From Candidatus Palauibacter sp. (GTDB lineage Bacteria; Gemmatimonadota; Gemmatimonadetes; Palauibacterales; Palauibacteraceae), in NCBI RefSeq assembly GCF_965261555.1, contig NZ_OZ253465.1:166633-230632 (forward strand): DNA of 64,000 nucleotides, read 5' to 3'. Of this stretch, positions 6,849 through 24,566 are shown in pieces. The first letter of the stretch is position 1; each line of letters starts with the position of its first letter. The notes under the pieces are model-generated. The model searched no databases. It was not told where the DNA came from and saw nothing but the letters and a program-made list of their open reading frames with translations. The translations under genes and the position numbers were made by a program.

Positions 6849-9014
<2,166 letters not shown>

Positions 9015-9038: not shown

Positions 9039-9228
9039 CTACGGCACGATGTCGTAGCGCACCACGTACGGGATGTCGAGCGCGTCCGTCTCCACGACCC
9101 AGACCTCGGTCCGGTTCGCGTAGGACACCCGCGAGGTGGCGGGAAGCCGAAACCAGCCGATACTCTCTGTAGGACGATTGGGGCGCAGAAACTCCCCCCG
9201 CGGATAGTTCGTCCTCGTGCTTGCGCTC
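9039..9228 (-). pseudogene. Relic: last ~55 codons of a 6-bladed beta-propeller paralog (no start, no N-terminal blades)
   Basis: The tail of ORF 9039..9545 reads ...GEFLRPNRPTESIGWFRLPATSRVSYANRTEVWVVETDALDIPYVVRYDIVP*. It aligns with the C-termini of the propeller genes at 12881.. (VWALH.GSLDESSIVALDIEGL*) and 20734.. (...AFGVPSVIRYDR*). It begins immediately after the stop of peptide gene P1. Confidence 0.5.
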
Positions 9229-9483
9229 CTATTCGATGATAATGAGTTCCGGTAGGCAACACCACTCGTATGCCGTAAAGCACGTCGAGCCTTGACAGTT
9301 CCCCAAGTAGACGTGCTGCATGTGCACGCACGGACCCAAGTCCTCCTCCGACTCCTCCGGGCACGCATTCCCGCTCGGCGGTCCGTCCAGCACCGCTGAA
9401 CCGATCGCCATTGGAGCAACCGCGAGGATGAAGACCGCCGCCAGCAGGGTGGCGACGCGGATGATCTGTGCGTAACACCACAT
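9229..9483 (-). CDS. Cys-rich secreted mini-protein P1 (84 aa, 6 Cys after a signal-like segment)
   Basis: Internal ATG of ORF 9229..9594, preceded by GGAGAGGAGG. Sequence: MWCYAQIIRVATLLAAVFILAVAPMAIGSAVLDGPPSGNACPEESEEDLGPCVHMQHVYLGNCQGSTCFTAYEWCCLPELIIIE. About 50% identical to P2, with identical Cys spacing. Confidence 0.65.
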   Translation of the reverse strand: MWCYAQIIRVATLLAAVFILAVAPMAIGSAVLDGPPSGNACPEESEEDLGPCVHMQHVYLGNCQGSTCFTAYEWCCLPELIIIE

Positions 9484-9545
9484 GTTCCTACCTCCTCTCC
9501 GAACTCGATAGGCCTTGGTTCCGGCCCCAGCGCAAGATTCCCCAA

Positions 9546-9573
9546 GCTTGCGCCGGTACGTACCGGCGCAAGC
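9546..9573. promoter_or_regulatory. Perfect 28-nt palindrome GCTTGCGCCGGTAC|GTACCGGCGCAAGC between the propeller gene and P1
   Basis: Read directly from the sequence. The two 14-nt arms are exact reverse complements. Function is unknown (hairpin/attenuator or dimeric-regulator operator). Confidence 0.5.
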
Positions 9574-9636
9574 GTACGGGAGTTGCGACTCCACTGTGTG
9601 CTTCTCCGTCCGAGCCCCGTCGCATCAGTTCAATCG

Positions 9637-10773
9637 TCAATCGGGATTCTCCCTGCGGAAGCTGAGCCTTGCGATCCGCCAAGGCGGGAAACGGGTGTCA
9701 GCGAGGAGGTACAGGTGCCGACCGCCACCCAGAACCCGGGAGTTCTCCGGCAACGGCACGTCCTCGTAGAGCTTGCGGCCGGTGTGCCGGTCGTAGATGT
9801 CGAGGGAGGAATGGTACGCCCCGAAAGGTCCACCGGACTTCGGGTAACCGAAACTGCCGTGCACAACGACGAGGCGGGAACCCACTACGGCGAGGTGCGA
9901 GATCGTGGTGCGCCCCCCAAGCAGGTCCGACACCTGCGTGGCGAACCCAGCTGGCGAGAAGGCGCCCGACTCGAATACGGGAACCAGTTCGAACGCCGCG
10001 GGGGGAACACCGATCTCTCCGATCGAGTCACCTGCCGTGTTCAGAATCGCCACCGGATAGCGCAGCGAAAACGCCATATAGATGGAATCGCCCGCCAAAT
10101 CGAACGAGAGGCGCGCGATCGAATTCCAATAGGGTCTCTCCGCCGGAAGGAACGGCCACATGAATGAACTCCACGTCAGTTCATCCTCTGCGAGGCGATG
10201 CAGCATTAGGGGGCGACGATAGAAGCGTGATCGTGGATCGTCCCCTCCCGATTCGCTGGCAAGCCTCATCTCGAGCAGAAGATCGTCGTCCAAGGTCTTG
10301 ACCCGTGAGGGAACTCCGGGTAGCCGCTTCGTAGTATCCGGCCGCAGGTCTCCGGTAAGCCACGTCAATCGAGCCTGGCGACCATCAACTACGGCTACTC
10401 GTCCGGACGCGGTCTCCGCCAGACCATCGATGCTCTGGAACTCGAACGGGCCCGCTCCAAATCGTCCGAAGGCCGCCTCGAGCCGCCCTTGGGCGTCGTA
10501 GCTCCGGACGCGGGGGAGCTGTCCGTCGCTCAGGAGGAAGCCACCTTCCGCACGTTCCTGAAAGATACCGGGCACGGCGATCGAATCCCGCGCACTCTCC
10601 TCGAGCGCGACAACCGTGGTATCGAACACACTGTCAAGCGCGACTCCGACCGCTGGCTGTGCGGGATCCGGCACCGCGTCGCATGCCGCGATTACCGAAA
10701 CCGTCACTATTACCGCATGGCGGGACAACCACACCCGCTGGCGGAGAGCAGTCAACAGCCTATTGAATGACAA
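9637..10773 (-). CDS. 6-bladed beta-propeller-type lipoprotein (propA)
   Basis: ORF 9637..10773 with a TTG start. Lipobox-like VSVIAAC. Blade-type motif FGRFGAGPFEFQSIDGL and repeated hydrophobic-strand/D-x-G patterns. Paralogous to 12778.., 17232.. and the C-terminal half of 20734... Start uncertain. It overlaps the P2 stop by 14 nt. Confidence 0.75.
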   Translation of the reverse strand: MSFNRLLTALRQRVWLSRHAVIVTVSVIAACDAVPDPAQPAVGVALDSVFDTTVVALEESARDSIAVPGIFQERAEGGFLLSDGQLPRVRSYDAQGRLEAAFGRFGAGPFEFQSIDGLAETASGRVAVVDGRQARLTWLTGDLRPDTTKRLPGVPSRVKTLDDDLLLEMRLASESGGDDPRSRFYRRPLMLHRLAEDELTWSSFMWPFLPAERPYWNSIARLSFDLAGDSIYMAFSLRYPVAILNTAGDSIGEIGVPPAAFELVPVFESGAFSPAGFATQVSDLLGGRTTISHLAVVGSRLVVVHGSFGYPKSGGPFGAYHSSLDIYDRHTGRKLYEDVPLPENSRVLGGGRHLYLLADTRFPPWRIARLSFRRENPD

Positions 10774-11017
10774 CGACTAGTTCCGGGAGGCAGCACCACT
10801 CTTCCGCCGTCCAGCACGACGAGCCCTCGCATTGCCCCTTGTAGTCATGCGCCAGCTCCACGCACGGGCCAAGTTCCTCTTCCCACGCCTCGACGCACGG
10901 GTCGATGCCTTCCTGTCCACCCAACGCCGCTGGACCCACGGTCGTAGATGCAACGGCGAAGATGAAGGCTACCGCTAGCACGGTGGCGATACGTGTGAGC
11001 AGTGCCAACTTGTCCAT
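10760..11017 (-). CDS. Cys-rich secreted mini-protein P2 (85 aa, 6 Cys)
   Basis: ORF 10760..11017 with ATG preceded by AAGGAGGG. Sequence: MDKLALLTRIATVLAVAFIFAVASTTVGPAALGGQEGIDPCVEAWEEELGPCVELAHDYKGQCEGSSCWTAEEWCCLPELVVVIQ. The mature part is acidic. Cys at 41, 52, 63, 68, 75 and 76, the same as in P1. Confidence 0.7.
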   Translation of the reverse strand: MDKLALLTRIATVLAVAFIFAVASTTVGPAALGGQEGIDPCVEAWEEELGPCVELAHDYKGQCEGSSCWTAEEWCCLPELVVVIQ

Positions 11018-11043
11018 GTTGTCCCTCCTTACAGATTCAGGAA

Positions 11044-11631
11044 TCAGCTGCGGATGAGGCTGGTGGCGAGAGTCCCGCGCAAAGCACCAACCTGCGCCTC
11101 GAAGCTCCAGCTACAATCCGAGGCGGCGGTTCTGGAATCGGCCATCAGTACGACTCCAGTGTGATCAACGAGAAGCTTCGTGTTCGGGAGAAGCGGGCCG
11201 AATGCGGTGTCCATGTCTTGCCTCGACGCTGCAATGAACGTCGTGCCGCGCAACGCCCGGCGCGCATCCTGAGGCACCTCGTCGCCACCAAACACCACGA
11301 CGTGACGCTTCAACGACGTATCGTCCCCAAGGGCATTCCACACGGCGACCCCGCCATCCAGGCAGGTTCGGCACCGGGCGAGGTCAACGATCCAGAGCAG
11401 GTGAGCATCCGTCGTATCCGACCTTGCGAGATCGAATGAGGACAGGAACACCGAAGTTCCGACCAGGCGATCCCGGACGCTCGACCGCTCGGCAAGGGGA
11501 CTCGTCACCTGCAGCGTCGCCGCAAGCTCGCGGTTCGACGAGGCCATGTTCCAAACCAGGATCGTGCCGCCAAGCACCAGCCCGAGCAGGGTCCAGTCCA
11601 GCACCGTCCTGGAGAATTTTCGTGCCGCCAT
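11044..11631 (-). CDS. Membrane-anchored thioredoxin-fold (TlpA/redoxin-like) protein with CxxC
   Basis: C-terminal 195 aa of ORF 11044..12579, from ATG 11631. N-terminal TM segment (TVLDWTLLGLVLGGTILVW). LLWIVDLARCRTCLDGGVAVWNAL resembles the beta1-CxxC-alpha1 of redoxins, and later PNTKLLVDHTGVVL resembles the cis-Pro/beta strand region. The fold assignment is motif-level only. Confidence 0.55.
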   Translation of the reverse strand: MAARKFSRTVLDWTLLGLVLGGTILVWNMASSNRELAATLQVTSPLAERSSVRDRLVGTSVFLSSFDLARSDTTDAHLLWIVDLARCRTCLDGGVAVWNALGDDTSLKRHVVVFGGDEVPQDARRALRGTTFIAASRQDMDTAFGPLLPNTKLLVDHTGVVLMADSRTAASDCSWSFEAQVGALRGTLATSLIRS

Positions 11632-11711
11632 GAGCGTCACTCGGCTACGATGAAAACCGGGTTTCTCGCGAACGATAAACTGGCTTCCCCGGGTGGCCGC
11701 AACCAGCAAGG

Positions 11712-12785
11712 AAACAGTATCAATTTGGCTCAAACCGTTTACTCTTGATCCAGAGTGGATACTCCGTCCGATCCGGCCGGGAGAATGGGGCGGACGTGTT
11801 CCGCGGTGAACGCCGCGAACAGCCGCTCCGGGGCCATCCGCTCCAGCTCGCGCGGCGTGCAGCCCGGCCATGTCTTTGTTCTTCGGGCCATGGTGGTCCG
11901 TCCAAGCCCCGTGCGGCGCTCCACGCGTTTCCAGATCAGGCCCGACCGGCGAAGCTCGTACACCCTGAGCACCGAGAGACCGCCGATGAACGCCTTCAGG
12001 GTCGTCGCCCCGTTCGTGCGAGCCCCGAACTGCCGGAACAGCGTGACGCGCGCGTACCCCACGGCTTCGGCCAGTTCCTGCGCGCTGCGGAACGGCCGGT
12101 CGGCGGCATGCCGCGCGGCAAGAACCAGAGCCTTCCCGAGGGCGGGAGGCAGTGAGGAGCGCTCGAGCGTGTCGGCCAGACTCCACAGGCCCCACGTCGC
12201 TCGCACGGCATCGAGGCGAGGTCGCAGATGTGTCCGCAGTTCGGCATACCAGACCAGCGACGCCGCACGCACGCGAAGCAATCGCCTGGCCAACTCGGGA
12301 TCGGGACCTGTCACCAGAACGACCGGCACCCACGGCCGCTCCCGCTCGAGCCTGACCAGGACGTCGACCTGATCGGGCCGAACCCGGCCACCACAAGCGA
12401 CGACCACCGCCTCGATCTGCTGGTCGAAGCTGGCGAACGCTCCGGTCGCGTCCGCCACGCGGGCATCCGGGCCCGCGGCTCCGCATACCTCCTGGGCTGT
12501 CTGAAGCGTGTCCGCGACCACAAGGATCATGGCGGCCTCCTGCATAGGGAACGCGGCTGTCCTCGCGCCTTCGATGCATCTCCGGCGCCTACATCTCCAT
12601 ATGCCGGGAGAGGGCGAACCGTTACGTGAGCCCGTCGACCCGCTCGCGCACCATCGTCGGAGTTCGTGTCGTTCTCTGTTCGTAACAGGCTGCATGACAA
12701 TGGCTTATGAACTTCTATGTCCGACGCGAAGAAGAAAAAGAGCTGTGGTGGTCGTTACCGGTGCACCGCTGGATCGATCACGCGC
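11712..12785. repeat. Copy 1 of a ~1.07-kb dispersed duplication (R gene + 27 nt 3' + ~255 nt 5' region)
   Basis: Collinear with 23491..24566. The sequence is identical just 3' of the stop (AAACAGTATCAATTTGGCTCAAACCGTTTA). The coding part is near-identical, the 5' region is patchily conserved, and similarity stops after the box at 12743-12778. Confidence 0.85.
11739..12530 (-). CDS. Transcription regulator R1: degenerate receiver-like N-domain + AraC-like double HTH
   Basis: Internal ATG 12530 of ORF 11739..12695, preceded by AGGAGG. 263 aa starting MILVVADTLQTAQEV.... The usual phospho-acceptor Asp position reads AVVVACGG. The C-terminus ELAEAVGYARVTLFRQFG...WKRVERRTGLGRTTMARRTKTWPGCTPRELER has the spacing of an AraC-type HTH pair. 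About 87% identical to R2. Confidence 0.7.
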   Translation of the reverse strand: MILVVADTLQTAQEVCGAAGPDARVADATGAFASFDQQIEAVVVACGGRVRPDQVDVLVRLERERPWVPVVLVTGPDPELARRLLRVRAASLVWYAELRTHLRPRLDAVRATWGLWSLADTLERSSLPPALGKALVLAARHAADRPFRSAQELAEAVGYARVTLFRQFGARTNGATTLKAFIGGLSVLRVYELRRSGLIWKRVERRTGLGRTTMARRTKTWPGCTPRELERMAPERLFAAFTAEHVRPILPAGSDGVSTLDQE

Positions 12786-14049
12786 AGCTCGCCAGGAGCT
12801 CTACATCACTCGTTAGGGCGTTCGTGCGCGACTTCATCGCCATGGGGACAAGCCGTGTGGCGATGATCCGGCGCGGGACCTCAGAGTCCTTCGATGTCGA
12901 GGGCGACGATGGAGGATTCGTCGAGGCTGCCGTGTGGAGGGCCCAGACCCTGCGCCCTCTCGCCTCCAGCAACCGTTGATCCTCCGGAAGGCGGATCGAG
13001 CCGAGGAATCGCCCGGACGATAGGAACACGTCGTGCATGGCTCCCGGGGCTCCATGTGGGCCGGCTGCTCCGGGGGGGGCGGGGCGGTCCCGCTGCACCC
13101 AGATCCGTCCGTCCACATCGACGACGATGCGGGAGATGACGGCCGGTAGCGGGGGCTCGCCGGCTTCGGCCAGGGCTTCGCCGAGGGTGCTCCGCCACGC
13201 GTCGGGCAGCTCCTCATCCAGCTCCTCCCCGCGCTCGGCAGGCGAGAGCGGGAGCGGTTCCCCCGGATGACAGAACCGCACGAGGCTCGTGCCGTCCCGG
13301 TCGAAGACCTCCAGTTCGTAACGCCCGTCCGGGTCGGAGACGACCCGGGTCTCCGCACCGACACCGAGCAGCGATCGCGGCCAGGCGGCGAGTGCCACGC
13401 CCGAGGGCACCCTCACGCGGGATCGTGCCACGGTGTCATGCGCGGCCGCGTCGGGAGACCAGCGCACGAAGGACCGCTCCTCCCAGCCATCCTCCACCGG
13501 CCCGGGGGATTCGATCCACACGCTCTGGTCCGGCTGGAGGGAGAGGAACCCGACCTCGCCGGACATGACCGCCGGCATGAGCAACGCCGGATCGACCGCC
13601 GTCACGCTGCTCGAACGCGACGCCAGGTCGAGTGAAGTCAGCCGATTCGTGCCGAGGTCCAGGACGAGGAGGGTGTTGGCATCGACCCAGGTCACCGCTG
13701 CCGGGGCCTGGACCTCGCCCGGGCCTTGGCCCCGTGTCATGACCGGCCCCAGCCACTCTCCATCGGGGTCGACCACGACGACTTCGGCGAGGCCCCAGTC
13801 CGCGATGGCCACCGATCCGTCGGGGCCTACGGCGACGTCAGCCGGAAAGATCAGTTCCTCCGTTTCCTCGGAGCCTCCGGCACGCCACACCTCACGCCAG
13901 GAAAGCTCGGCGGGCCAGGTCCCGACGCCCGTGTTCGTCACGGTCCGACCGTCGGGGTCCACGACTTCACACGCGGGGGATCCCGGCCGGCCGCAACCGG
14001 CGACCGTGGCGGCAAGGAGTGAGGTCAGTGCCCGGGATCCGAGAGTCAT
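12778..14049 (-). CDS. 6-bladed beta-propeller-type lipoprotein (propC), with a probable frameshift near the 3' end
   Basis: ORF 12778..14169 with internal ATG 14049. MTLGSRALTSLLAATVAGCG contains the lipobox VAGC. Blade motif TRGQGPGEVQAP. After ...RRVWALHT the annotated frame gives an unrelated Ser/Pro-rich tail. An alternative frame gives GSLDESSIVALDIEGL* (stop at 12881), which matches paralog C-termini. Confidence 0.7.
   Translation of the reverse strand: MTLGSRALTSLLAATVAGCGRPGSPACEVVDPDGRTVTNTGVGTWPAELSWREVWRAGGSEETEELIFPADVAVGPDGSVAIADWGLAEVVVVDPDGEWLGPVMTRGQGPGEVQAPAAVTWVDANTLLVLDLGTNRLTSLDLASRSSSVTAVDPALLMPAVMSGEVGFLSLQPDQSVWIESPGPVEDGWEERSFVRWSPDAAAHDTVARSRVRVPSGVALAAWPRSLLGVGAETRVVSDPDGRYELEVFDRDGTSLVRFCHPGEPLPLSPAERGEELDEELPDAWRSTLGEALAEAGEPPLPAVISRIVVDVDGRIWVQRDRPAPPGAAGPHGAPGAMHDVFLSSGRFLGSIRLPEDQRLLEARGRRVWALHTAASTNPPSSPSTSKDSEVPRRIIATRLVPMAMKSRTNALTSDVELLASCA
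12817..12841 (+). pseudogene. Relic of a katG 3' end (25 nt, 24/25 identical to katG 8945-8969)
   Basis: GGCGTTCGTGCGCGACTTCaTCGCC versus katG GGCGTTCGTGCGCGACTTCgTCGCC. It translates AFVRDFIA versus AFVRDFVA. Like the real katG end, it lies convergent to a propeller 3' end. Confidence 0.45.
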
Positions 14050-14081
14050 GTACTGACGCCTACCCCGCGATGGGCTCTCCG

Positions 14082-14195
14082 TCAATCGGGATTCGACTCC
14101 AGGAAGCTGGGCCTTGCGATCCGCAAGGGCGGAAAACGGCGGTCCTGGAGAACGTAGAGATACCGCCAATACGGCCTCTCCATGGGAACGAACGG
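14082..14195 (-). pseudogene. Relic: last ~35 codons of a propA-type propeller paralog
   Basis: Hand translation gives (M)ERPYWRYLYVLQDRRFPPLRIARPSFLESNPD*, compared with the propA end GGGRHLYLLADTRFPPWRIARLSFRRENPD*. The nucleotide block ~14082-14140 parallels 9637-9700. Confidence 0.5.
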
Positions 14196-14210
14196 GTAGG
14201 TGTGTAACGT

Positions 14211-14816
14211 TTGGCGGTTTCGCGGCATATACAAGATGGGAGTTTACGTCATCAAGCGGCGGAAGGAATCCATGGCGGGCGACTTGACTTGCTGACGTCC
14301 GAGCAGGAGCGGCGACTGGCCGACGAGGCGGGACGCGGCGATCGCGAGGCTCTGGAGTGCCTGTACAGGGAGTATTCCGACGAGTTGTACGACATTGCGC
14401 GTCGTCTGACCGGATCGTCGGCTGATGCGTACGATGTCGTGCACAGTATGTTCGGTCGGCTTCCCGCTGCCCTTCGGGGCTACGCCCGTCACCGCCCGCT
14501 CAGACCGTGGCTGCACGCTGTGACGGTTCGCGCGGCCCTCTCGCAGATCCGGCGGGAAAGGCGGCGTGGCGAAGTATCGATGCCCGATGATCGGGTCGAT
14601 GAGGCGTCCGTTGGAACGCCCCTCTTGGATTTCATCATGCTTGAACGTGCACTGTCTTCGCTCCCGGAGGGATACAGGTCCGTGATCGTGCTTAAGGAAT
14701 TCCAGGGCTATTCCCACCGGGAGATCGGCAAGCTGCTGGGAATATCGCGTGCCGCTTCGCGCGCGCGGCTATGCAGGGCGCGGATAGAGCTCCGTGCCAT
14801 GCTGGCCGATGAATAA
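14211..14816 (+). CDS. ECF-type RNA polymerase sigma-70 factor
   Basis: ORF 14211..14816. Region 2-like GDREALECLYREYSDELYDIARRLTGSSADAYDVVHSMF. Region 4 YRSVIVLKEFQGYSHREIGKLLGISRAASRARLCRARIELR. The TTG at 14211 is probably too far upstream, so the true start is uncertain. Confidence 0.8.
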   Translation: MAVSRHIQDGSLRHQAAEGIHGGRLDLLTSEQERRLADEAGRGDREALECLYREYSDELYDIARRLTGSSADAYDVVHSMFGRLPAALRGYARHRPLRPWLHAVTVRAALSQIRRERRRGEVSMPDDRVDEASVGTPLLDFIMLERALSSLPEGYRSVIVLKEFQGYSHREIGKLLGISRAASRARLCRARIELRAMLADE

Positions 14817-14827
14817 GGAGATGAGAG

Positions 14828-17011
14828 GTGTTTTCTGACAAGACGGGAGAGCATCCGGACGATCAGGCTCTAAACCGTTTCGCTGACGGCGAATTGAAAG
14901 GACGTGCCGCCCGCCGTGTCCGCTCACACCTTCAATCGTGCGCGGCGTGTCGCGAAGAAGTCCAGTTCATTCGTGACCTGGGGCACGCAATCCGGACGAT
15001 CCCCTCGCCGAGGCCACCGGAAGCTCTGTTCGACGAGATCTTCCGGAAGGAGCCGAAGAGTGCCACGGTTGGCCCCGCGACCGTACCGCAGCCGAGGCTC
15101 ATCGCGTTCTCGCGAAGTCTGCTTCTTGCGGCGGGGATCTGTCTGTTGGTGCTCATCGCGGCAATCGCCGCGTTGACCCTTGGGTCCGACCGGGCCATGG
15201 CCGGCTCGAGCAGATTGAGCTTCGAAGGGGAAGCGCCGGACGCGCTCACACTCCGTTACGAGACGGTCTCACCCTTCGCAGAGGAACGTGCTCTCCGGGC
15301 GCGGTTGCGCTACTGGGTTCCCGATTCGCTCCGCTTCGCGCAGACCGACCCGGGGTACCGCACAGCAGAAATCTCCCGCGAAGGATCCAACGTTTTCGCC
15401 GGCACCGTGGCCCTGCCGTCCGGTACCGTCTACGCCGTCGCCACCGTTGAAGACCTGGACGGAAATTACATCGACAGCAACTTCGGTCGGCTCTGGGAAT
15501 ACGTCGAAGCGGATCCCGGGGGCCGACCGACGTTGCAGGCGCGACGCTACCAACTGCTGGCGACCTCTGCGTTCAGCGTCTCCCGGGCCGCCGCAGTCGC
15601 GGAGGAAGCCGCCTTGCAGTTCCCCGGGCAGCCCGAGTTCCGGGTCCGGCAGTTGTTGTTCGCGCAGAGCGCAATTCCAGCCGCGTCACGCACCGCACTC
15701 CTCCGCCAGCACGCGCTTCGTCTGACGGAACTGGATGGCGCCGCCCGGGAAGGAAATCCGGGCCCCGTGGAACTCGACGCCCTCCAACGCTACGCAGCGC
15801 TCCTCGACCGGCCCGACCTGGCGAGCTACTGGTCGGACCAGCTGGTGCGTCGGTACCCGCAACACGGAGCGGCGGCCATGGCGCACCTGCAGTCGATTGT
15901 CCGTTCTCCCATGACGGCTCCGAGGAAGTTGGAGGATCTTGAGGAGAGCTGGGCGAGGACGGGGGCGCCGGCGACCGCCCAGGTCGGCTTCCGACTCTCG
16001 CTCCAGCTCGCAGATCCCGTCCTGACCAGGAGCTGGTTGGACCGCCACTCCCGGACCTCCGTGTTCCGCGACCTTAGCTACGACACTGAAATAGCCGCGG
16101 ACATGATGGGGGTGCCTGTCCTGTGGCCGATCGCCGAAGCGTGGATCCTCGATCGTCTTGACGACAGCCGCGATGAGATGGGGCCCGAGCGGCCGCTCGA
16201 TCAGTCACGTCGGAACTTCCGGGCCGAAGTGAGCCGGCACCGTGCGCGACTCAACCTCTACCTCGCCCGTCTCCGCCTCGCCCGCGGGCAGTTGGCGGAC
16301 GCGGTGGCGGCAGCAGAGCGGTCGGTCGGGGAGACGTGGAGTCCCCACATCTTTCAGGAAGCCGCCGAGATCCTCCGCGCCGCCGGGTCGGATCTCCGCG
16401 CCGGCGAGTTGCTGGCACTTTCCCGCGTGGATCCGGTGGCCCCCCTGAACTCCCGTCCGGTCTCCGACGGATCGCCGGCCCTCCCCGAGCCTTCGGAGGA
16501 GCAACTCGCGGCGGCTCGGACGACCATGTACGACCGCGTCACGGCCGCACTGCTCGAAGAGTACGTCGACCTCGAAGCACGCGTGCGATCGGCAACCGGC
16601 GAAGAGACGACGCTCCGCGAGGTGGTTGGCGACAGCCTCTTCCTGGTGGTCCAAGCCTATCGGCCAGACTTCGTGCCGGATGACGCATTGGCCCTTCTCG
16701 ACGTGAACTCCAACGAGTTACGCGCAGCCGGCGTGGGGACCCTCCTGATTGCTCAGAGGCCGGCTCCCGCTGAACCGGAACAGCCCGACTCCAGCCTGTC
16801 CAGCCCGAGGTTCCATCACGACGTGGGATACGAGGCGTGGGACAGTCTGCGCGCGTGGCGCCAGGTGCAGTACTTCGTCCTGGATCCGAGTGGCAGGCTC
16901 CGCCACCGCGGGGAGGATCTGGAGACGACTCTCCGCATTCTATTCGTGCTCTCGACGCGAACGGTCGCGTCTTCCGATGTCGCACCAGACCGAAAGGAAA
17001 CGGACACATGA
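14828..17011 (+). CDS. Anti-sigma factor (zf-HC2 N-domain, one TM segment, ~600-aa extracytoplasmic domain)
   Basis: ORF 14828..17011 with GTG start 8 nt after AAGGAG. HLQSCAACREEV is the H-x3-C-x2-C anti-sigma motif. TM segment LLLAAGICLLVLIAAIAAL. The last ~130 aa (TTLREVVGDSLFLVVQAYRPDFVPDDALALL...QYFVLDPSGRLRHRGEDLETTL) resemble a Cys-less redoxin fold, which is a weak call. Confidence 0.75.
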   Translation: MFSDKTGEHPDDQALNRFADGELKGRAARRVRSHLQSCAACREEVQFIRDLGHAIRTIPSPRPPEALFDEIFRKEPKSATVGPATVPQPRLIAFSRSLLLAAGICLLVLIAAIAALTLGSDRAMAGSSRLSFEGEAPDALTLRYETVSPFAEERALRARLRYWVPDSLRFAQTDPGYRTAEISREGSNVFAGTVALPSGTVYAVATVEDLDGNYIDSNFGRLWEYVEADPGGRPTLQARRYQLLATSAFSVSRAAAVAEEAALQFPGQPEFRVRQLLFAQSAIPAASRTALLRQHALRLTELDGAAREGNPGPVELDALQRYAALLDRPDLASYWSDQLVRRYPQHGAAAMAHLQSIVRSPMTAPRKLEDLEESWARTGAPATAQVGFRLSLQLADPVLTRSWLDRHSRTSVFRDLSYDTEIAADMMGVPVLWPIAEAWILDRLDDSRDEMGPERPLDQSRRNFRAEVSRHRARLNLYLARLRLARGQLADAVAAAERSVGETWSPHIFQEAAEILRAAGSDLRAGELLALSRVDPVAPLNSRPVSDGSPALPEPSEEQLAAARTTMYDRVTAALLEEYVDLEARVRSATGEETTLREVVGDSLFLVVQAYRPDFVPDDALALLDVNSNELRAAGVGTLLIAQRPAPAEPEQPDSSLSSPRFHHDVGYEAWDSLRAWRQVQYFVLDPSGRLRHRGEDLETTLRILFVLSTRTVASSDVAPDRKETDT

Positions 17012-17223: not shown

Positions 17224-17231
17224 GCACCGGA

Positions 17232-18583: not shown

Positions 18584-18719
18584 AACATCCGCAGGCCATC
18601 TCCCCGACGCTCGTGTTCCCAACGTCCCGGCCCTCGGAGTCCGTGACTTCATACGCCGGCTTCGGGACGATGAGCGCGCCGTCAACCGATGCAGGCGCCG
18701 CCGGACGACCCTCGCGGAG

Positions 18720-19784
18720 CTACTTCGTCCAGACCACGACCACGCCGCACTGTCCTGTCGGGCCCCCGAATTCCGCGGGTAGCGAGGCGGCGCCCTTGTA
18801 CACTTCGATCCCTGCGACCTCGTGCGGTTTCACCCAGCCAAGGAACCTCTCAACACGCACTCCGTCGAGGTAGTTTGTCATGGGGCAGGAGGATCTTCGG
18901 TTGATCATGCGCCCGTTGCGGTCCACCGAAATGCCCGGGGCCAGCATGCTGACCAGGTGGGCGACTTCCCTCGGACGCCAGAGTTCGATGTAGTCCTCCG
19001 TGATGTACGTTCCGAGTCCGAGAAGCTCACCCCATCGTTTTCGCTCGTAGAACCCCTTGATCTCGAGGCGGCGCGACCGGACCACCGTGGTCACCAGGGG
19101 CTCCATCTCCAGCGGCGCCGGGACAAGGGCGATGCCGACTTCCGTCGTACGACCCTCCTCTACCGAGACCACGTGCCGGAGCGGCGCGTAGCCGATCCGC
19201 CGGGTCTCCAGCACATGCGTGCCGGCGGGCACGCCGCTCATCACGAACCGGCCCTGACGGCCCGTGTCGACCGACCTGGGCTGGCCGGCCAGTGAAACGA
19301 TCACCACATGGACGGGATCATCCGTCAGGGCGTCGCGCACCGAGCCGATGAGGCGCCCCGGCCGGCCCGGGGTACTCGGAGCCGTGGTCGCAACATCGAG
19401 CGGGATGCGGAGGACGACCTCGCGCGCCACCCCCGGCTCGAACAGGACGGACGCTTCGCCGCTCGAATGGTCGCCCAGCTCCGCCCGCACGGCGGCGCGC
19501 TCGGCAGCACGCGGCACGCAAAGGAGGAGCGAGCCATCGGCCCGCGTGGACGCCCGAACGGGCGGCGCGGCCGCGTCACCCCACTCGATGATCACCGTGG
19601 CCCCTGGCAGAGGGATGCTGCCGGACTGGTCCGAGACGGTTACGGCCAGTTCGACTCCGTCCCCGCAGTCGCCCGCCTCCTGTCCCCATGCGCCGCCGCC
19701 CCCGAACGCCAGGCACACCGGGACGAAGATCGCCGCCGTCAGGGAGCGGGGAGTCCGGGCCGTGAACATCGTTCCGCGAACCAT
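18720..19784 (-). CDS. Carboxypeptidase-regulatory-like domain + TonB-dependent-receptor plug-like domain protein (no barrel)
   Basis: ORF 18720..19871. Signal LTAAIFVPVCLAFGGGGAWGQ. GRLIGSVRDALTDDPVHVVIVSLAG...TGRQGRFVMSGVPAGTHVLETRRIGY resembles a CarboxypepD_reg fold. The C-terminus HLVSMLAPGISV...YLDGVRV...EVAGIEVYKGAASLPAEFGG...GVVVVWTK resembles a plug, and the protein ends there. Start at M30 (19784) or M35. Confidence 0.6.
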   Translation of the reverse strand: MVRGTMFTARTPRSLTAAIFVPVCLAFGGGGAWGQEAGDCGDGVELAVTVSDQSGSIPLPGATVIIEWGDAAAPPVRASTRADGSLLLCVPRAAERAAVRAELGDHSSGEASVLFEPGVAREVVLRIPLDVATTAPSTPGRPGRLIGSVRDALTDDPVHVVIVSLAGQPRSVDTGRQGRFVMSGVPAGTHVLETRRIGYAPLRHVVSVEEGRTTEVGIALVPAPLEMEPLVTTVVRSRRLEIKGFYERKRWGELLGLGTYITEDYIELWRPREVAHLVSMLAPGISVDRNGRMINRRSSCPMTNYLDGVRVERFLGWVKPHEVAGIEVYKGAASLPAEFGGPTGQCGVVVVWTK

Positions 19785-20424
19785 CAGTCTCTCCGATCTC
19801 GCCCGGCCGGCCACGCAGGACGCCAGCCCGTAATCGCAGGAAGGTCGAGCTCGTCGCGGCTCACCGTCCATAGCATACCTCCGGTTGCGGTCAGCAGAGC
19901 GTGAGCGGGGGGCAGATCCACGGACCCGATGAACCCATCGTCAAATCGATATGCGGCCCACCGCTCGGCATCGCGCGGCGCACGCGCACTTGCGCGAAAC
20001 CAGACCGTCCCGGCCTCGCTCGCGGTCATTGCATCTACCGCCGTCTCGGCGGGGCGAGGGATCTGCTGCAGGAAAGCTCGCGCCAAAGTCCCTGACGATA
20101 CGCGGGAACGGAACGAATCCGGCATCCCGCCGTGAAGTCCTTGGGCGAACGATCGAACCTCTTCCCGATGTAGCGGGCGCCGCCCCGTGAGAAAACCCGT
20201 ACTGTAGCGTCCTCCGGCAGCAGCACGAACACGCGCTCGGCATCGGCGAGCACCCCGCCGACCCTTGTCAGTCCGTAAACCGGATCGTCGACGCTTCCGA
20301 TCATGACGCCATGCTTGAGCGTCCGCTCCGGGACCTGGCCCGCGACCGGACCGGATACCGGAGCGGCACCGAGCGCCAGCGCGTATCCCAGAAGAATGCT
20401 CCTCATAATGGGCTTCCCGCTCAT
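19784..20424 (-). pseudogene. Degraded propeller paralog (two overlapping ORFs in different frames, internal blades missing)
   Basis: ORF 20035..20490 has a signal (MRSILLGYALALGAAPVSG), a first blade and a decayed GPGEF site (GKRFDRSPKDF). ORF 19784..20125 has the last blades (...YRFDDGFIGSVDLPPAHALLTATGGMLWTVSRDELDLPAITGW...). Together they give ~210 aa, compared with ~350 aa in intact paralogs. Confidence 0.45.
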
Positions 20425-20439
20425 TCGCTGGCCTGTCTT

Positions 20440-20725
20440 TCTTCTACAATCGCAGTTGTGCCGTGGCGCTTCGAATCGCGCTCGTCTCACTCTGCCGGTA
20501 CGCCACCCTCTGCGACGCCAGCCGTGATCTCCACGGAGACCTGCATCGATAACAACGCCAGCGTGTCGCGGATCGTGCCCGCCGTGTCCAACACGACGAG
20601 GGGGCGACCTCGGGTCTCGAGGGTCGGGCCGGGTATCGCCGTGTAGACGCCTCGTGGAGCATGTGGCTCAGTTCGACCGCCGCTTCGGGCACGATCATGC
20701 GTAGTTCGCGGTCGTATATCGCCGC
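20440..20725 (-). pseudogene. Relic of a purine nucleoside phosphorylase 3' part (frameshifted)
   Basis: 20600-20722 aligns by eye at roughly 80% with 24880-24990 of the intact PNP gene (…GTAGACGCCT.CGTGGAGC.TGTGG.CCAGTTCG.CCGC…GCACGATC.TGCG.AGTTCGCGGTCGTA). Translations YDRELRMIVPEAAVELSHMLHE / GVYTAIPGP.LET / VSVEITAGVAEGGV parallel PNP YDRELRTIVRETAAELGHTLHE / GVYAAMHGPAFET / ISCLTNYAAGVLDEPL. They are split over ORFs 20444..20698 and 20487..20744. Confidence 0.55.
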
Positions 20726-20733
20726 AACTTAAG

Positions 20734-22593
20734 CTAACGGTCATAGCGGATCACCGATGGAACGCCAAAGGCGTTTTCTTCGACGGCGATGAAGAAGCTG
20801 CGCGTCGCAGCCGCGACTCGTTGCCGACGTGGAAGCGCCACGACGTCTTGAACCTCGCCAGACGGGGACAGGACAGTCCACACTACGTTCTCCTCGCCAC
20901 GGTCCTCGCGCCTTAGCCAGACCGAACCGTCGCGGCCGACTGCCAGAGCCGTGATCGGAGGGAGCGTCGCCGGAATCAGCCCTCCCTCTCGCAAGGCTTG
21001 TTCAAACTCCGGCCCTTCGGGTGCTTCCTGCTCCCCGGTGGGGAATACGCTCAACTCTTGTAGCGTTCGCTCGATCGCGCGCCTGGTCAGCGGAACCGGC
21101 TCGTAGCCGTAGGCGCGGTGGAACACCGTGTCTCCCTTCATGTCCCTCCGTGTTATTGTAACCAGCCCCTCGGCGGGATCTGTCCAGCGAGCGATGATCG
21201 CGCCTTGGCCGTTCGGCATGACCGCCGTCTTCGAGAAACCTTCGTATGGTGCCTGTACCTGAAACAGCCGGTTCCCCCGCACTATCCCAACGATAGCTCC
21301 GGAGACTTCCCTCCACGCCACGGTATCAATGACCATGCCGAGCGAATCGATTCTCAACAGAGGGATGCGAGAATGCTCCTGCTGGACACCCGCTTCTGGC
21401 AATGCTGGCGCGCCCAAGAGGTGCGGTTCAGCTATGGCGTGTCCACCCTCGAGAAGGACCACGGGCCAACCGCCAGTGATGAATAGTCCATCGCGAACGG
21501 ATTGCATTTCCAGCTTCGCCGCCAAGCGTCGTGTAGCCAGAAAGTGTCCGTCCGTCGAGAACAGGCTCACCCGTCCCTGGTCGGAGTCACTGACGAAGAC
21601 CGTATCATCCAAAACTCCGACCGCCGAGATTGCCGAAAATTCGCCGGGCCCCTCGCCTCGACCCCCGGCCTGCCACAGCACTTCGCCACTGGAATCGAGG
21701 CGCATTATGCGGAGATCCCACGGTTGCGCCACATAGACTTCACCAGCCTCGCCGATGGCCACGTCGTCCAAGCGCCAGGGAAGCAACCCCGCTTGGCCGA
21801 CACCATCAATCGTCCATACCGGTTTCACCTCAGCGGAGATCGCCTTGCTCGCCAACATCGGCAGGGCTCGAGTCCATCGGTCCGCCACCATCTCTGCAAT
21901 CGTGGTTCTTAGCTGGCTCTCAGAGGGGGGCGTCCCGTATCGCCAGCCATTGACCAATACGGTCGGGGTGCCTTCCACGCCAAGCTGCTGACCGAGTTTG
22001 AGTGTCGTCGCGATGCGCTCATCTCGCGTAGTTCCTTCCTCTCGCGCACAGTGCGAGATCCGAGCCGTGTCGCGAATCCCCGCCTCAATGGCCAACGTGC
22101 CCCATCCCATCAAGCCAAGAGACTGCTGATTCCGGTATACCGAGTCGATCCACTCCCGAAAGAACCCCAGTTCGTGCGCGCAGTCCGCAGCGCGCGCCCC
22201 GGGCGTGGAGTGCTCATGATAATCGAGCGGGTGGTTCACATAGAAGACGCGAACCGGCAGCGTATCGGTCGCGATCTTCTGCACGGTCTCGTGAAATAGT
22301 GCGCAGAACGGACACTCCGAATCCATGAACACGACGACATCGACCGGCGGCCGGCCTCCCCCGCTAACGTCGCGAGTCTCGAAGAGGAGGAAACCTTCAT
22401 CGCGCGCGCTCTCCCATCCAGTTTCGAAAACCATCGAAGGATTGTCGGGCTGATGGCTTGGGCCACGAGCTGGGGCGAACACGAGACGGTATCCGACGAT
22501 GACAACCGTCGCCAAGGCGCAAATCGCGAGCAGGATGGTCAAGAGCTGGTCACGTCTCGCGGATCGGCAACTATGCGACATGGCAATCCCCAT
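20734..22593 (-). CDS. Fusion protein: N-terminal TM anchor + DsbA-like thioredoxin domain (CPFC) + 6-bladed beta-propeller
   Basis: ORF 20734..22674, with the start probably at ATG 22593 or 22581. TM segment LLTILLAICALATVVIVGY. VDVVVFMDSECPFCALFHETV...ADCAHELGFFREW...LGVEGTPTVLVNGWRYG is a classical DsbA/BdbD-type pattern. The C-terminal ~350 aa carry GGRGEGPGEFSAISAV and blade repeats and end ...AFGVPSVIRYDR. Confidence 0.75.
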   Translation of the reverse strand: MGIAMSHSCRSARRDQLLTILLAICALATVVIVGYRLVFAPARGPSHQPDNPSMVFETGWESARDEGFLLFETRDVSGGGRPPVDVVVFMDSECPFCALFHETVQKIATDTLPVRVFYVNHPLDYHEHSTPGARAADCAHELGFFREWIDSVYRNQQSLGLMGWGTLAIEAGIRDTARISHCAREEGTTRDERIATTLKLGQQLGVEGTPTVLVNGWRYGTPPSESQLRTTIAEMVADRWTRALPMLASKAISAEVKPVWTIDGVGQAGLLPWRLDDVAIGEAGEVYVAQPWDLRIMRLDSSGEVLWQAGGRGEGPGEFSAISAVGVLDDTVFVSDSDQGRVSLFSTDGHFLATRRLAAKLEMQSVRDGLFITGGWPVVLLEGGHAIAEPHLLGAPALPEAGVQQEHSRIPLLRIDSLGMVIDTVAWREVSGAIVGIVRGNRLFQVQAPYEGFSKTAVMPNGQGAIIARWTDPAEGLVTITRRDMKGDTVFHRAYGYEPVPLTRRAIERTLQELSVFPTGEQEAPEGPEFEQALREGGLIPATLPPITALAVGRDGSVWLRREDRGEENVVWTVLSPSGEVQDVVALPRRQRVAAATRSFFIAVEENAFGVPSVIRYDR

Positions 22594-22697
22594 TTGGTTG
22601 CGGAAAGAAGCTCTTGCCCGGCGAACACAGTGGCGCTTCGGCTGCGCTGCGAGAAAGCAGCACAGCCGAAGCAAGGTGCGCGAATACGGCGGTCAGA

Positions 22698-23006
22698 TCA
22701 ATAAAGGTCGCCGCCACCACTTCCCCCGCCGCCCGGGGAGGCACATCGGATCGTCTTGGCGAGCTGATAGCCCGGCAGGACGCAGGCCCTGCTTTCGCAC
22801 GATCCGCTCTCGCCGCAGCCTACATTCTTGCAATACGTCTCCATGCTGTTGGGGCAGAAGGTCGCACAGATCCGCTGGCAACCGCCGGCGGTACTTGCAG
22901 ACGTCCGACTAGCCAGTACGGTTCCGCCCAGAATCACGAGCAGACAAACGACCTGGATGATGCGACGCGCAGCGGGAGACGACGGAAGCTTCGTTCCTAC
23001 GGACAT
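22698..23006 (-). CDS. Cys-rich secreted mini-protein P4 (102 aa, 8 Cys after the signal, Gly-rich tail)
   Basis: ORF 22698..23006 with ATG preceded by AGGAGGAAAAA. Sequence: MSVGTKLPSSPAARRIIQVVCLLVILGGTVLASRTSASTAGGCQRICATFCPNSMETYCKNVGCGESGSCESRACVLPGYQLAKTIRCASPGGGGSGGGDLY. Confidence 0.6.
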   Translation of the reverse strand: MSVGTKLPSSPAARRIIQVVCLLVILGGTVLASRTSASTAGGCQRICATFCPNSMETYCKNVGCGESGSCESRACVLPGYQLAKTIRCASPGGGGSGGGDLY

Positions 23007-23490
23007 TTTTTCCTCCTAGGTTGGGAACGATAAGCCCCGAAACAATTCCGGGACGCGGTGGTGACGGCTGCGAGGAATAACTTCGCATGCACTCACGGGC
23101 AGCAATCTGAGTTCCCCTGCGGGCTGACGAACACGATCCGCAGCCATCAGCGATCGCAGCAAAAGCCCGCGGCCATGGGGACGATGCCGAAGGGCGAAAG
23201 GCCCTGACGAGACAACGCGCCTTCCGCCCGAGAATCGGGCTGACACACACCCGACCGCGTGAACCAACCAGCTTGAAGACGCCGTAGCGGTGGATCACAG
23301 GCCGGAACTCTGGGCATCTACCTACAGCCAACAGATGCTCGATTGTAGCGTCCGCGGAGCGTCGCATCGGAGGCCACGCCCTTCCTGACCTTGAGCTCCG
23401 GCATGCGTTCGTCCTCCTATCTGGAGATTCGACTCGACGACGACTCTGGCATGGGAAACTGGCGGTTCCCGGGACCTGCATCTAGAACAC

Positions 23491-24566
23491 AAACAGTATC
23501 AATTTGGCTCAAACCGTTTACTCTTGATCCAGAGTGGACACTCCGTCCGATCCGGCCGGGAGAACGGGCCGAACGTGTTCCGCGGTGAACGCGGCGAACA
23601 GCCGGTCCGGGGCCATCCGCTCCAGCTCGCGCGGCGTGCAGCCCGGCCATGTCTTTGTTCTTCGGACCATGGTGCGCCGTCCAAGTCCCGTGCGGCGCTC
23701 CACGCGTTTCCAGATCAGGCCCAACCGGCGAAGCTCGTACACCCTGAGCACCGAGAGACCGCCGATGAACGCCTTCAGGGTCGTCGCGCCGTTCGCGCGA
23801 GCCCCGAACTGCCGGAACAGCGTGACGGGCGCGTACCCCACGGCTTCGGCCAGTTCCCGCGCGTTGCGGAATGGCCGGTCGGCGGCATGCCGCGCCGCAA
23901 GAACGAGCGCCTTCCCGAGGGCGGGAGACAGTGAGGAGCGCTCGAACGTGTCGGCCAGAGTCCACAGGCCCCACGTCGCTCGCACGGCATCGAGGCGAGA
24001 TCGCAGATGTGTCCGCAGTTCGGAATACCCGACCAGCGACGCCGCCCGCACGCGAAGCAATCGCTTGGCCAACTCGGGATCGGGATCCGTCACCAGAACG
24101 ACCGGCACCCACGGCCGCTCGCGCTCGAGCCTGGCCAATAGGTCGACTTGCTCGGGCCGAACGCGGCCGGGGCTCGCGACCACCACCGCATCGACCACCG
24201 CATCGAGGCGAGTGAGCGCTCCGTTCGCGACCGCCACGCGGGCATCCGGGCCCGCGGCTCGGCATACCTCTTGGGCTGTCTGAAGCGTGTCCGCGACCAC
24301 AAGGATCATCGCGACCTCTCTTGAACAGGAACGCGAGAGCGCCCGCGTCCTCGATGTATCTCCACCCTCTACTAGTTAATGGCCCGCTCAAGGGCGAAAC
24401 TTCGTTCGGGTCGAGCGGATCGGCTGGTGCGTGATCGTCGGATGTCACCTCGTAGCCGAATCGTAAGACTCTTTATGGCAATCGATCAGGAACCTCGATG
24501 TCCGAGGCCAGGAAGAAAAAATGGCTTTGGTGGTCGTTACCAATGCACCGTTGGATCGACTCCGCG
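23491..24566. repeat. Copy 2 of the ~1.07-kb dispersed duplication
   Basis: See copy 1 (11712..12785). Confidence 0.85.
23518..24309 (-). CDS. Transcription regulator R2 (paralog of R1)
   Basis: ORF 23518..24309, 263 aa. I count about 33 differences from R1 by hand alignment, clustered at residues 27-59. The HTH region is almost identical. Confidence 0.7.
   Translation of the reverse strand: MILVVADTLQTAQEVCRAAGPDARVAVANGALTRLDAVVDAVVVASPGRVRPEQVDLLARLERERPWVPVVLVTDPDPELAKRLLRVRAASLVGYSELRTHLRSRLDAVRATWGLWTLADTFERSSLSPALGKALVLAARHAADRPFRNARELAEAVGYAPVTLFRQFGARANGATTLKAFIGGLSVLRVYELRRLGLIWKRVERRTGLGRRTMVRRTKTWPGCTPRELERMAPDRLFAAFTAEHVRPVLPAGSDGVSTLDQE

Follow-up and report, generated by a model that had tools for sequence, protein, structure and literature searches.

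The thioredoxin-fold proteins ResA, CcmG/DsbE, TlpA and StoA serve one or a few dedicated clients, such as apocytochromes and Cu centres. Dedicated oxidoreductase-client modules are a known kind of system, and so are proteins that combine a thioredoxin (Trx) domain with an NHL propeller: in SOQ1 (bioRxiv 10.1101/2021.03.16.435614) and NHLRC2 (PMC6107167), a Trx-like redox motif is located at the interface with the NHL propeller. Here we describe a 64,000-nucleotide stretch of Candidatus Palauibacter sp. (Gemmatimonadota; contig NZ_OZ253465.1, positions 166,633 to 230,632), hereafter the window, in which a region starting at position 9039 contains a conserved cell envelope module in three working copies and a decayed one. 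The module is a trio consisting of an exported, cysteine (Cys)-rich mini-protein, a six-bladed propeller that is probably a lipoprotein, and a thioredoxin-type partner. All components belong to known superfamilies, namely NHL propellers, DsbA- and TlpA-like Trx folds, and pairs of extracytoplasmic function (ECF) sigma and ZAS anti-sigma factors. The trio itself is real and conserved in Gemmatimonadota, and it is apparently undescribed. Indeed, neither a trio with a Cys-rich partner, nor its four architectures, nor an anti-sigma sensor built on a pseudo-TlpA domain has a match in Pfam, NCBIfam, PADLOC or the searchable literature, and no established role was found for the propeller family; the claim of novelty made in a first-pass annotation of the window thus holds against these resources.

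Small Cys-rich proteins next to propeller genes

Four small open reading frames (ORFs) of the window, P1 to P4, each lie directly 5' of a propeller gene or of a propeller relic. They had been proposed by the first-pass annotation, and we find them at the same coordinates with a mechanical filter that picks the same four. The filter asks for a Shine-Dalgarno (SD) site, a 13-residue segment with a mean hydropathy of at least 1.8 within the first ~40 residues, at least three Cys thereafter and a length of 45–125 aa; applied to both strands of the window (128 kb of strand), it returned P1, P2, P3 and P4 only. Their SD sites are strong (AAGGAGG, GGAGG or AGGAGG, 6–8 nt upstream), and their N-termini show positive charge followed by a hydrophobic stretch, the remainder being Cys-rich. 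In the mini-proteins of the module the N-terminus is Sec-type signal-like, and the mature, Cys-rich part measures 45–65 aa.

P1 (9229–9483, minus strand; 84 aa, SD GGAGG) and P2 (10760–11017, minus strand; 85 aa, SD AAGGAGG) are paralogs with signal-like N-termini and six Cys each, in the common pattern C-x10-C-x10-C-x4-C-x6-CC. P2, for which there are four homolog clusters, ends in a hydrophobic C-terminal tail, and its 14-nt overlap with the propeller gene propA hinges on the TTG start that was chosen. We rejected the idea that this tail (LPELVVVIQ) universally supplies the propeller with a strand, since many family members end right after the CC pair; a cofactor of the tryptophan tryptophylquinone or cysteine tryptophylquinone (TTQ/CTQ) type in the peptides was likewise rejected, the P2 family having no conserved Trp. 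P3 (17008–17223, plus strand; 71 aa, five Cys) carries a putative signal peptide ending in ANA; its start overlaps the stop of an anti-sigma gene, its end lies 8 nt before the propeller gene propD, and homologs are placed in the same manner in loci L007, L008 and L009 and in at least 25 type I loci (see below). P4 (22698–23006, minus strand; 102 aa, eight Cys, SD AGGAGG) combines a signal-like N-terminus with a Gly-rich tail. It has one homolog, P0099, which is 66% identical, keeps 8/8 Cys and is found in the same context, with an R-type regulator on one side and a 615-aa Thioredoxin_4-propeller fusion on the other, in locus L068.

The ratio of nonsynonymous to synonymous substitution rates (dN/dS) was 0.23 for P2 against its ortholog in L002, 0.25 for P4 against that in L068 and 0.37 for P3 against that in L007, and every Cys is conserved in these three ortholog pairs; for the paralogs P1 and P2 it was 0.6. 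Ortholog values of 0.23–0.37 together with the retained Cys indicate purifying selection, and on this evidence the small ORFs are coding. The G+C content at third codon positions (GC3) of P1–P4, 0.69–0.76, matches that of the propeller genes (0.71–0.78). No Pfam or NCBIfam family covers P1–P4 or ten peptides taken from other loci, and none of these peptides matches NVEALA (PF14055) in Pfam at E<=10.

Conservation of the small ORFs beside propeller homologs had been set beforehand as one of the tests on which the first-pass proposal could fail. We surveyed gene neighbourhoods in contigs from one genome per species, covering 87 loci in total, mostly from metagenome-assembled genomes (MAGs) and almost all from Gemmatimonadota. 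The first survey followed distant relatives of propD through 57 loci (nearly all from Gemmatimonadota, with one from Acidobacteriota and one from Balneolaceae), scoring filter-positive ORFs that end at most 450 nt before the propeller match or at most 150 nt into it. Of the 51 loci whose upstream region is complete, 38 have such an ORF. Elsewhere, 1.04 Mb of strand contains 12 of them, or 0.007 expected per site (binomial P ~3e-71), and several of these 12 adjoin other propeller paralogs. The second survey used a membrane CxxC protein of the window as query (30 loci) and recovered the order CxxC protein, six-Cys P2-family peptide, propA-type propeller in 23/30, the CxxC gene being downstream in two more. 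The small ORFs are thus conserved as coding sequences next to propeller homologs, and the same architecture persists at 30% propeller identity.

All-against-all clustering of the ORFs in the 87 loci yielded as recurrent families only propellers, ECF sigma factors, anti-sigma factors, membrane CxxC proteins and DsbA-like proteins. No exporter, protease, radical-SAM or other enzyme recurs in these loci, in agreement with the earlier remark that the region matches no cluster for bacteriocins or for peptides made by ribosomes and modified after translation (RiPPs). Each propeller clade goes with a peptide family of its own. The genes can be packed closely, as in L008, where the peptide overlaps the start of its propeller by 4 nt.

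Propellers, thioredoxin-fold partners and architectures

The best characterized propeller of the window is propD (17232–18287, plus strand), a six-bladed, NHL-type probable lipoprotein of the BF3164/TolB_like family (PF15869, 4.7e-16; 59.4 bits for a cutoff of 29.2). Its 93 homologs carry PF15869 and the NCBI name 'BF3164 family lipoprotein'. The AlphaFold2 (AF2) model of propD has a pLDDT of 89.7 and a pTM of 0.86, and its best PDB matches in Foldseek are the six-bladed NHL domains of Thin, Brat and TRIM71 (TM 0.70–0.71 on the target). The gene propA (9637–10773, minus strand; lipobox VIAAC) encodes an NHL-like propeller, probably a lipoprotein, with a GxGPxEF blade motif common to the other propellers, and its orthologs are found 3' of P2 homologs in L002 and in at least 23 type III loci. 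A further, probable lipoprotein propeller (12778–14052, minus strand; lipobox VAGC) represents the third propeller type in the P2 operon of the relatives, its ortholog being the 396-aa gene after propA2 in L002; it gives weak NHL/DUF5128 matches. The propeller call of the first-pass annotation is borne out by the PF15869 score and the six-bladed model of propD and, for the fusion protein described below, by a PDB NHL match at 3e-17. We note that propA, 12778–14052 and the propeller part of the fusion stay below every Pfam propeller threshold and do not match PF15869 at E<=0.01.

In the alignment of homologs, the propellers conserve, apart from the lipobox, neither Cys nor His, nor any catalytic or metal-binding residues. 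In propD homologs, the N-terminal hydrophobic stretch often, but not invariably, ends in a Cys. The C-terminal tail of 12778–14052 is longer than that of the L002 ortholog and different from it, and the conserved ending ...ESSIVALDIEGL is found in another frame (ORF 12881–13198), which suggests a frameshift or a sequencing error. We found no literature on the BF3164, DUF5128 and NVEALA families.

Three propeller relics accompany the intact genes. The first (9039–9228, minus strand) comprises 63 codons of a last blade directly after P1; it matches the propeller C-termini of L087 and L070 in phmmer (2.6e-11 and 2.7e-10) and ends ...DIPYVVRYDIVP, as do other members of the propeller family. The P1 cassette is a remnant and no working unit, with P1 orphaned beside a dead propeller. 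The two other relics were absent from the earlier list. One is the C-terminal relic of a propA2-type propeller (14082–14234, minus strand; phmmer 1e-12 to the C-terminus of L002 propA2), which forms a 77% DNA repeat with 9635–9720. The other is a broken propeller gene in two ORF fragments (19784–20490, minus strand): the N-terminal fragment aligns to blade 1 of the propellers (phmmer 1e-17 to the propeller N-termini of L070/L087), and the second, 19784–20125, for which phmmer found no homolog, is a putative C-terminal blade.

Thioredoxin folds had been called in three proteins, and all three calls stand, the third at the level of its family. The type IV fusion (20734–22593, minus strand) consists of a membrane-anchored, DsbA-like Thioredoxin_4 domain (Pfam 1.2e-16) followed by an NHL-like propeller. 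Its residues ~80–235 score 61.7 bits against Thioredoxin_4 (cutoff 23.2), CPFC and the cis-Pro loop motif GTPT are read in its sequence, and its PDB matches include DsbA (4.5e-8). A search of the genome contigs with the fusion protein alone gave no relative; its only ortholog, the fusion in L068, was reached via P4, whose homolog it follows on the 3' side. Adjacent, unfused DsbA-then-propeller pairs occur in L009/L010 and L053 and link types II and IV, and the CxxC is kept in all DsbA-like partners with a complete ORF.

The second protein is the membrane-anchored, TlpA/ResA-like protein with a CRTC active site encoded by 11044–11631 (minus strand). In its family of 126 representative homologs, the CxxC (C87, C90) and a third Cys, C173, are invariant. 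Tests on the single sequence gave no Pfam, NCBIfam or PDB phmmer match and an hhalign probability of 2%; AhpC-TSA/Redoxin is matched by 3/64 members of the family, and the family profile reaches the PDB at E 0.05 at best. The Trx fold is settled by the family alignment combined with structure prediction: the AF2 model (pLDDT 93) shows a long N-terminal helix and a Trx fold, and its top Foldseek matches are ResA, DsbE, StoA, TlpA and DsbF (E 1e-5, TM 0.5–0.6). The third protein is an anti-sigma factor (14828–17011, plus strand) with a zf-HC2 N-terminus (1.3e-7), one transmembrane (TM) segment and a ~600-aa periplasmic part that ends in a Cys-less TlpA/AhpC-like domain. The family of this last domain matches AhpC-TSA in 18/22 members, and its profile reaches PDB TlpA/ResA/DsbE at 4e-14. 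The C-terminus in the window has no Pfam match of its own and no Cys at the active-site position; probably the fold was kept and catalysis was lost.

The trio is found in four architectures, each with a Trx-fold partner. Type I (27 loci; window 14203–18287) comprises an ECF sigma factor, a zf-HC2 anti-sigma factor of ~700 aa with a TlpA-like end, a peptide and a propeller (P3 and propD). Type II (12–14 loci) has a six-Cys peptide, a propeller and a DsbA-like gene. In type III (window 9637–11631) a membrane TlpA-like CxxC protein is followed by a P2-type peptide and one or more propA-type propellers, and in type IV (window 20734–23006) the eight-Cys peptide P4 precedes the DsbA-propeller fusion. 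Type I peptides carry the motif ND-x-C-x(3-9)-C(C)-x-E-x-(G/D)S-x-C...YY and those of type III the motif ...DPYC...C..C(W/Y)(T/S)-x4-CC. Two near-identical type III cassettes (L085 and L086) are assigned to a Gemmatimonadetes MAG and to a Bryobacterales MAG, probably reflecting a binning error rather than transfer.

The number of Cys in the peptide follows the partner, a rule absent from the first-pass annotation. Peptides next to an anti-sigma gene have an odd number in 25/25 cases (three or five; P3 has five), those next to the membrane CxxC protein an even number in 25/25 (six), those next to a DsbA-like gene an even number in 11/12 (mostly six), and P4, next to the DsbA-propeller fusion, has eight. 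Pooled over the catalytic partners, the count is even in 36/37; because the loci are phylogenetically related, these figures are descriptive. Parity is unchanged when the count goes from three to five Cys, which is what a single free thiol together with one or two disulfides would give. In the TlpA-like domain of the anti-sigma factors of type I loci, a CxxC is present in four, the first Cys only in three, and neither in the rest, including the window.

The type I genes of the window are closely spaced. The ECF sigma gene (14211–14816, plus strand; Pfam Sigma70_r2, r4_2 and ECF; TIGR02937) lies 11 nt from the anti-sigma gene, and the genes for sigma, anti-sigma, P3 and propD overlap or are 8–11 nt apart. 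A promoter-like element, TGTAAC-N15-GGCAT (14203–14228, plus strand), is located upstream; it is unique in the window (0 expected by chance), so that none is found upstream of the other cassettes, and in ~12 further type I loci the sigma gene is directly preceded by TGTAA(C/G)-N15-GGCAT. The conserved element and the tight spacing fit a putative ECF promoter under autoregulation, from which sigma, anti-sigma, P3 and propD would be transcribed. Since the element overlaps the first start of the sigma ORF (TTG 14211), the true start is probably downstream, for example at TTG 14289, which would give ~175 aa as in the homologs.

The other regulators are the paralogs R1 (11739–12530, minus strand) and R2 (23518–24309, minus strand), which match each other at E 4.7e-147 in phmmer. 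Neither window copy has a Pfam match; weak precomputed HTH_18 matches in homologs, including those of R2 in L067/L068, make an AraC-type helix-turn-helix (HTH) possible. R1 homologs are upstream of cassettes in L002, L071, L067/L068 and L007. A dedicated regulator had been proposed for each cassette, and R1, R2 and the sigma/anti-sigma pair are indeed present in the window; R-type regulators, however, are found beside cassettes in Palauibacter-like genomes only and are lineage-specific accessories. In the same manner, the adjacency to katG, from which a redox link had been tentatively drawn, is confined to close Palauibacter relatives, and the link was rejected as a general one.

The cassette region is bounded by katG (6876–9014, plus strand) and a purine nucleoside phosphorylase (PNP) gene (from 24631, minus strand). 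Relative L002 has a shorter version, in the order PNP, regulator, membrane CxxC protein, 85-aa P2 homolog, three propeller genes and katG, so that the window has ~10 kb extra (14.2–24.4 kb). This extra stretch shows rearrangement scars: a repeat around R1/R2, a copy of a PNP segment and three propeller relics. The DNA flanking R1 and R2 is 91% identical (11677–11976 versus 23456–23755), and an internal piece of PNP recurs as a 65-nt copy (88% identical) just 3' of the stop of the fusion gene (20652–20716 versus 24911–24975); both look like scars of duplication or insertion of a block made of R2, P4 and the fusion. In L071, PNP, katG and R fragments are likewise duplicated. The window as a whole has a G+C content of 68%, with 62–64% at 10000–24000 versus 68–71% in the flanks, and the GC3 of the island genes is 0.69–0.78 versus 0.93 for katG, consistent with horizontal acquisition or with different selection.

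Other genes also occur near the trio. ORF 18720–19871 encodes a CarboxypepD_reg domain and a C-terminus like a TonB-receptor Plug, without a beta-barrel; similar short genes are found near cassettes in L009, L015, L025 and L070, and they are no core component. A further family of small to medium-sized Cys-rich proteins with the motif CCRVC-x-TGK-x-CG-x-SCIS occurs near cassettes (L007, 10131–11110; L081, 7174–7407). In L002, a HigB/HigA-type toxin-antitoxin pair (16128–16719) adjoins katG at the edge of the variable region.

Candidate roles of the module

Taken together, the trio is most likely a dedicated disulfide-handling or thiol-sensing unit of the cell envelope. We give an even chance to one general mechanism, in which the mini-protein is docked on the propeller, the Trx-fold partner acts on its Cys, and type I has been turned into a sensor. 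Following this scheme, the mini-protein would be exported by Sec to the periplasm and would dock on its cognate propeller, which would be a binding platform rather than an enzyme, because the propellers are Cys-free, lack conserved catalytic residues and share their fold with ligand-binding NHL domains. The Trx-fold partner, be it a DsbA-like protein fused to the propeller or encoded after it, or the membrane TlpA/ResA-like CxxC protein, would work on the cysteines of the propeller-held mini-protein, and the existence of a DsbA-propeller fusion argues that this takes place at the propeller. The product would be a disulfide-locked mini-protein, either free or propeller-bound. In type I, the TlpA-like domain would have become the periplasmic sensor of a zinc-finger anti-sigma factor, with its catalytic Cys mostly lost, and the mini-protein would retain one unpaired Cys. 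An oxidoreductase fold in the receptor domain and a free thiol in the peptide speak for sensing rather than folding, and type I would most likely signal to the autoregulated ECF sigma factor whether the mini-protein/propeller pair is present or in which thiol state it is. The physiological output could be defence, the handling of envelope redox stress, or signalling.

A more specific version of this mechanism is in our view unlikely. Type I (14203–18287) would be a self-contained thiol signalling circuit of a new kind, in which the one unpaired Cys of the peptide is presented by the propeller to a TlpA-like receptor that is dead or, in some lineages, a single-Cys 'trapping' one, its oxidation or covalent capture switching the ECF sigma factor, and types II–IV would be the catalytic ancestors of this pseudo-enzyme receptor. 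If this were true, the Trx+NHL class (NHLRC2/SOQ1) would gain its first natural client type.

Several points weigh against a disulfide-handling or thiol-sensing role. Its support is genome context, mostly from MAGs, and signal peptides and lipoboxes were called by eye or by the hydropathy filter and are heuristic. An ORF that passes the criteria is lacking in 13/51 propeller loci, of which most show by eye a three-Cys ORF that narrowly misses the filter, and the relatedness of the loci means that the counts overstate the number of independent events. P1 persists although its neighbouring propeller is dead. A catalytic partner is lacking in most type I loci, and across the types the partners differ in chemistry: some are DsbA-like proteins, which as a rule oxidise, others TlpA/ResA-like proteins, which as a rule reduce, and a third kind is a TlpA-like domain that is catalytically dead; 'oxidative folding' may thus be wrong for type III. 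Of the earlier proposal, the conserved trio stands, and that the unit oxidatively folds and binds or processes the peptides is an inference. Finally, the sole propeller homolog related to Bacteroidota that was recovered, a lipoprotein from the Balneolaceae (L059, 4045–5145), has no Cys-rich small ORF upstream, and a search for Bacteroidota relatives with this homolog returned already-known loci only; the pairing may be limited to Gemmatimonadota and Acidobacteriota.

Two alternatives survive best, both of them doubtful and neither ahead of the other. The mini-proteins could be Sec-exported, disulfide-stabilised antimicrobial peptides, with the propellers as immunity proteins or receptor decoys and the Trx-fold proteins as dedicated folding catalysts. 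The peptides are highly variable outside their Cys, with a separate family for each propeller clade, several copies are found per genome, and the island shows relics, rearrangement scars and a lower GC3, all of which would suit such a role; dedicated thiol-disulfide proteins also occur in sublancin and pediocin clusters. However, no exporter, peptidase or outer-membrane route recurs in the 87 loci, and a Sec signal reaches only the periplasm of a diderm cell. The retention of P1 beside a dead propeller would amount to self-harm unless propA cross-protects, and neither the link to an anti-sigma sensor nor the odd-Cys rule finds a place. PADLOC gave 0 matches for ten proteins of the region, which also led us to reject a reading of the region as a defence system.

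Alternatively, each pair could form a two-subunit periplasmic protein with a catalytic or binding activity of its own, in which the mini-protein is the permanent, disulfide-rich light chain of a propeller heavy chain and the Trx-fold protein a maturation factor, according to the plan of methylamine dehydrogenase, where MauB is the propeller, MauA the Cys-rich light chain and MauD the TlpA-like factor. The gene pairs are tightly spaced or overlapping, the peptide and propeller families co-diversify, and a TlpA-like membrane protein adjoins the pair like MauD; MauE and MauD have been linked to light-chain maturation (bioRxiv 10.64898/2026.03.05.709764). Yet the propellers have six blades, not seven, and no conserved catalytic residues, the peptides lack a conserved Trp pair or other cofactor residues, and MauG-, MauE- or radical-SAM-like genes do not recur in the 87 loci.

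A role in metal handling is distinctly improbable. In this case the mini-proteins would bind copper or another thiophilic metal in the periplasm, and the DsbA-like partners would be copper-tolerance proteins of the ScsC type. The Trx domain of the fusion does match ScsC-type 'copper/metal resistance' structures, but more weakly than DsbA, its best structure matches being generic DsbA; the unpaired Cys of type I peptides could ligate a metal, but types II–IV have even Cys counts, spaced as is typical of disulfide knots, His/Met-rich motifs are missing, and metal pumps, chaperones and metal-sensing regulators are absent from the 87 loci. Slightly less probable still is a RiPP-like pathway, in which the small ORFs would be precursors and the propeller a peptide-modifying enzyme. 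A precursor-like small gene directly 5' of a larger gene would fit, and NHL propellers include peptidyl-hydroxyglycine lyase, a weak PDB match (E 0.44); nevertheless, the N-termini resemble Sec signals rather than leader peptides, none of the known RiPP enzymes, proteases or exporters is recurrent in the 87 loci, the propellers have no conserved metal-binding or catalytic residues, and no RiPP family is matched in Pfam or NCBIfam. That there is no system, and that chance ORFs, of which high-GC DNA is rich, merely adjoin propellers by coincidence, is negligible as an explanation in view of the enrichment (P 3e-71), dN/dS below 0.4 with conserved Cys, the strong SD sites and an architecture kept at 30% propeller identity.

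The trio provides a concrete, testable set of partners for the BF3164/TolB_like and DUF5128 propellers, large families with structures but no function, and likewise for the ~126-cluster family of TlpA-like membrane proteins. With it come four or more unannotated families of Cys-rich proteins, small and exported, which gene callers and domain databases mostly miss, and a probable ECF anti-sigma sensor that derives from a decayed thiol oxidoreductase. The odd/even Cys rule offers a simple, falsifiable prediction of which versions are enzymes and which are sensors, and type I has a real chance of being a signalling circuit of a new sort.

Comparison with known systems

The sigma/anti-sigma pair shares with ECF pairs of the ZAS (zf-HC2) type the sigma70 r2/r4 regions, the N-terminal zf-HC2 domain, the single TM segment, downstream genes in the same transcript and a conserved upstream promoter-like element. 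It differs in that its periplasmic sensor ends in a degenerate TlpA/AhpC-like domain and invariably has an odd-Cys mini-protein and a propeller alongside; we found no description of such a sensor module in a literature search. RiPP and bacteriocin clusters do not match the module either: no leader peptide, modifying enzyme, exporter/peptidase or immunity family recurs in the 87 loci.

Among propellers, propD is a member of BF3164/TolB_like (PF15869) by score, and L009 has a neighbour of the DUF5128 (PF17170) type, whereas propA, the fusion and the lipoprotein propeller fall below the Pfam thresholds. Bacteroides members of the BF3164/DUF5128 propellers presumably sit beside small 'NVEALA' proteins, a family that the peptides described here do not match.

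Methylamine dehydrogenase resembles the module in that a propeller, a small disulfide-rich exported protein and a membrane TlpA-like CxxC factor are encoded together, type III (11044–11631, P2 and propA) being the closest. Its heavy chain, however, is seven-bladed while the propellers here have six blades, its light chain carries a Trp-derived quinone made by MauG while the peptides have no conserved Trp pair, and MauG and MauE are not among the genes that recur in the 87 loci. With ResA, CcmG, TlpA and StoA, the 11044–11631 protein and the C-terminal domain of the anti-sigma factor share fold and membrane anchoring. Here, in contrast, the clients would be small Cys-rich proteins held by a propeller, the 11044–11631 family has its third invariant Cys (C173), and the type I fold is the Cys-less sensor domain of an anti-sigma factor.

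A similar domain architecture is that of SOQ1 and NHLRC2, in which a Trx-fold domain is followed by a six-bladed NHL-type propeller on the non-cytoplasmic side, the same order as in the fusion 20734–22593. NHLRC2 and SOQ1 chains are absent among the PDB matches of the fusion at E<=1. The Trx domain of the fusion is DsbA-like (Thioredoxin_4, CPFC, helical insert) and not of the TlpA/Trx_8 type, and the C-terminal DsbD-like beta domain is missing. We know of no small Cys-rich partner gene and of no established client for SOQ1 or NHLRC2, whereas the module described here has a dedicated partner gene of this kind. It would thus represent, in bacteria, a counterpart to the way human NHLRC2 and plant SOQ1 combine Trx and NHL domains, with a probable client encoded next door.

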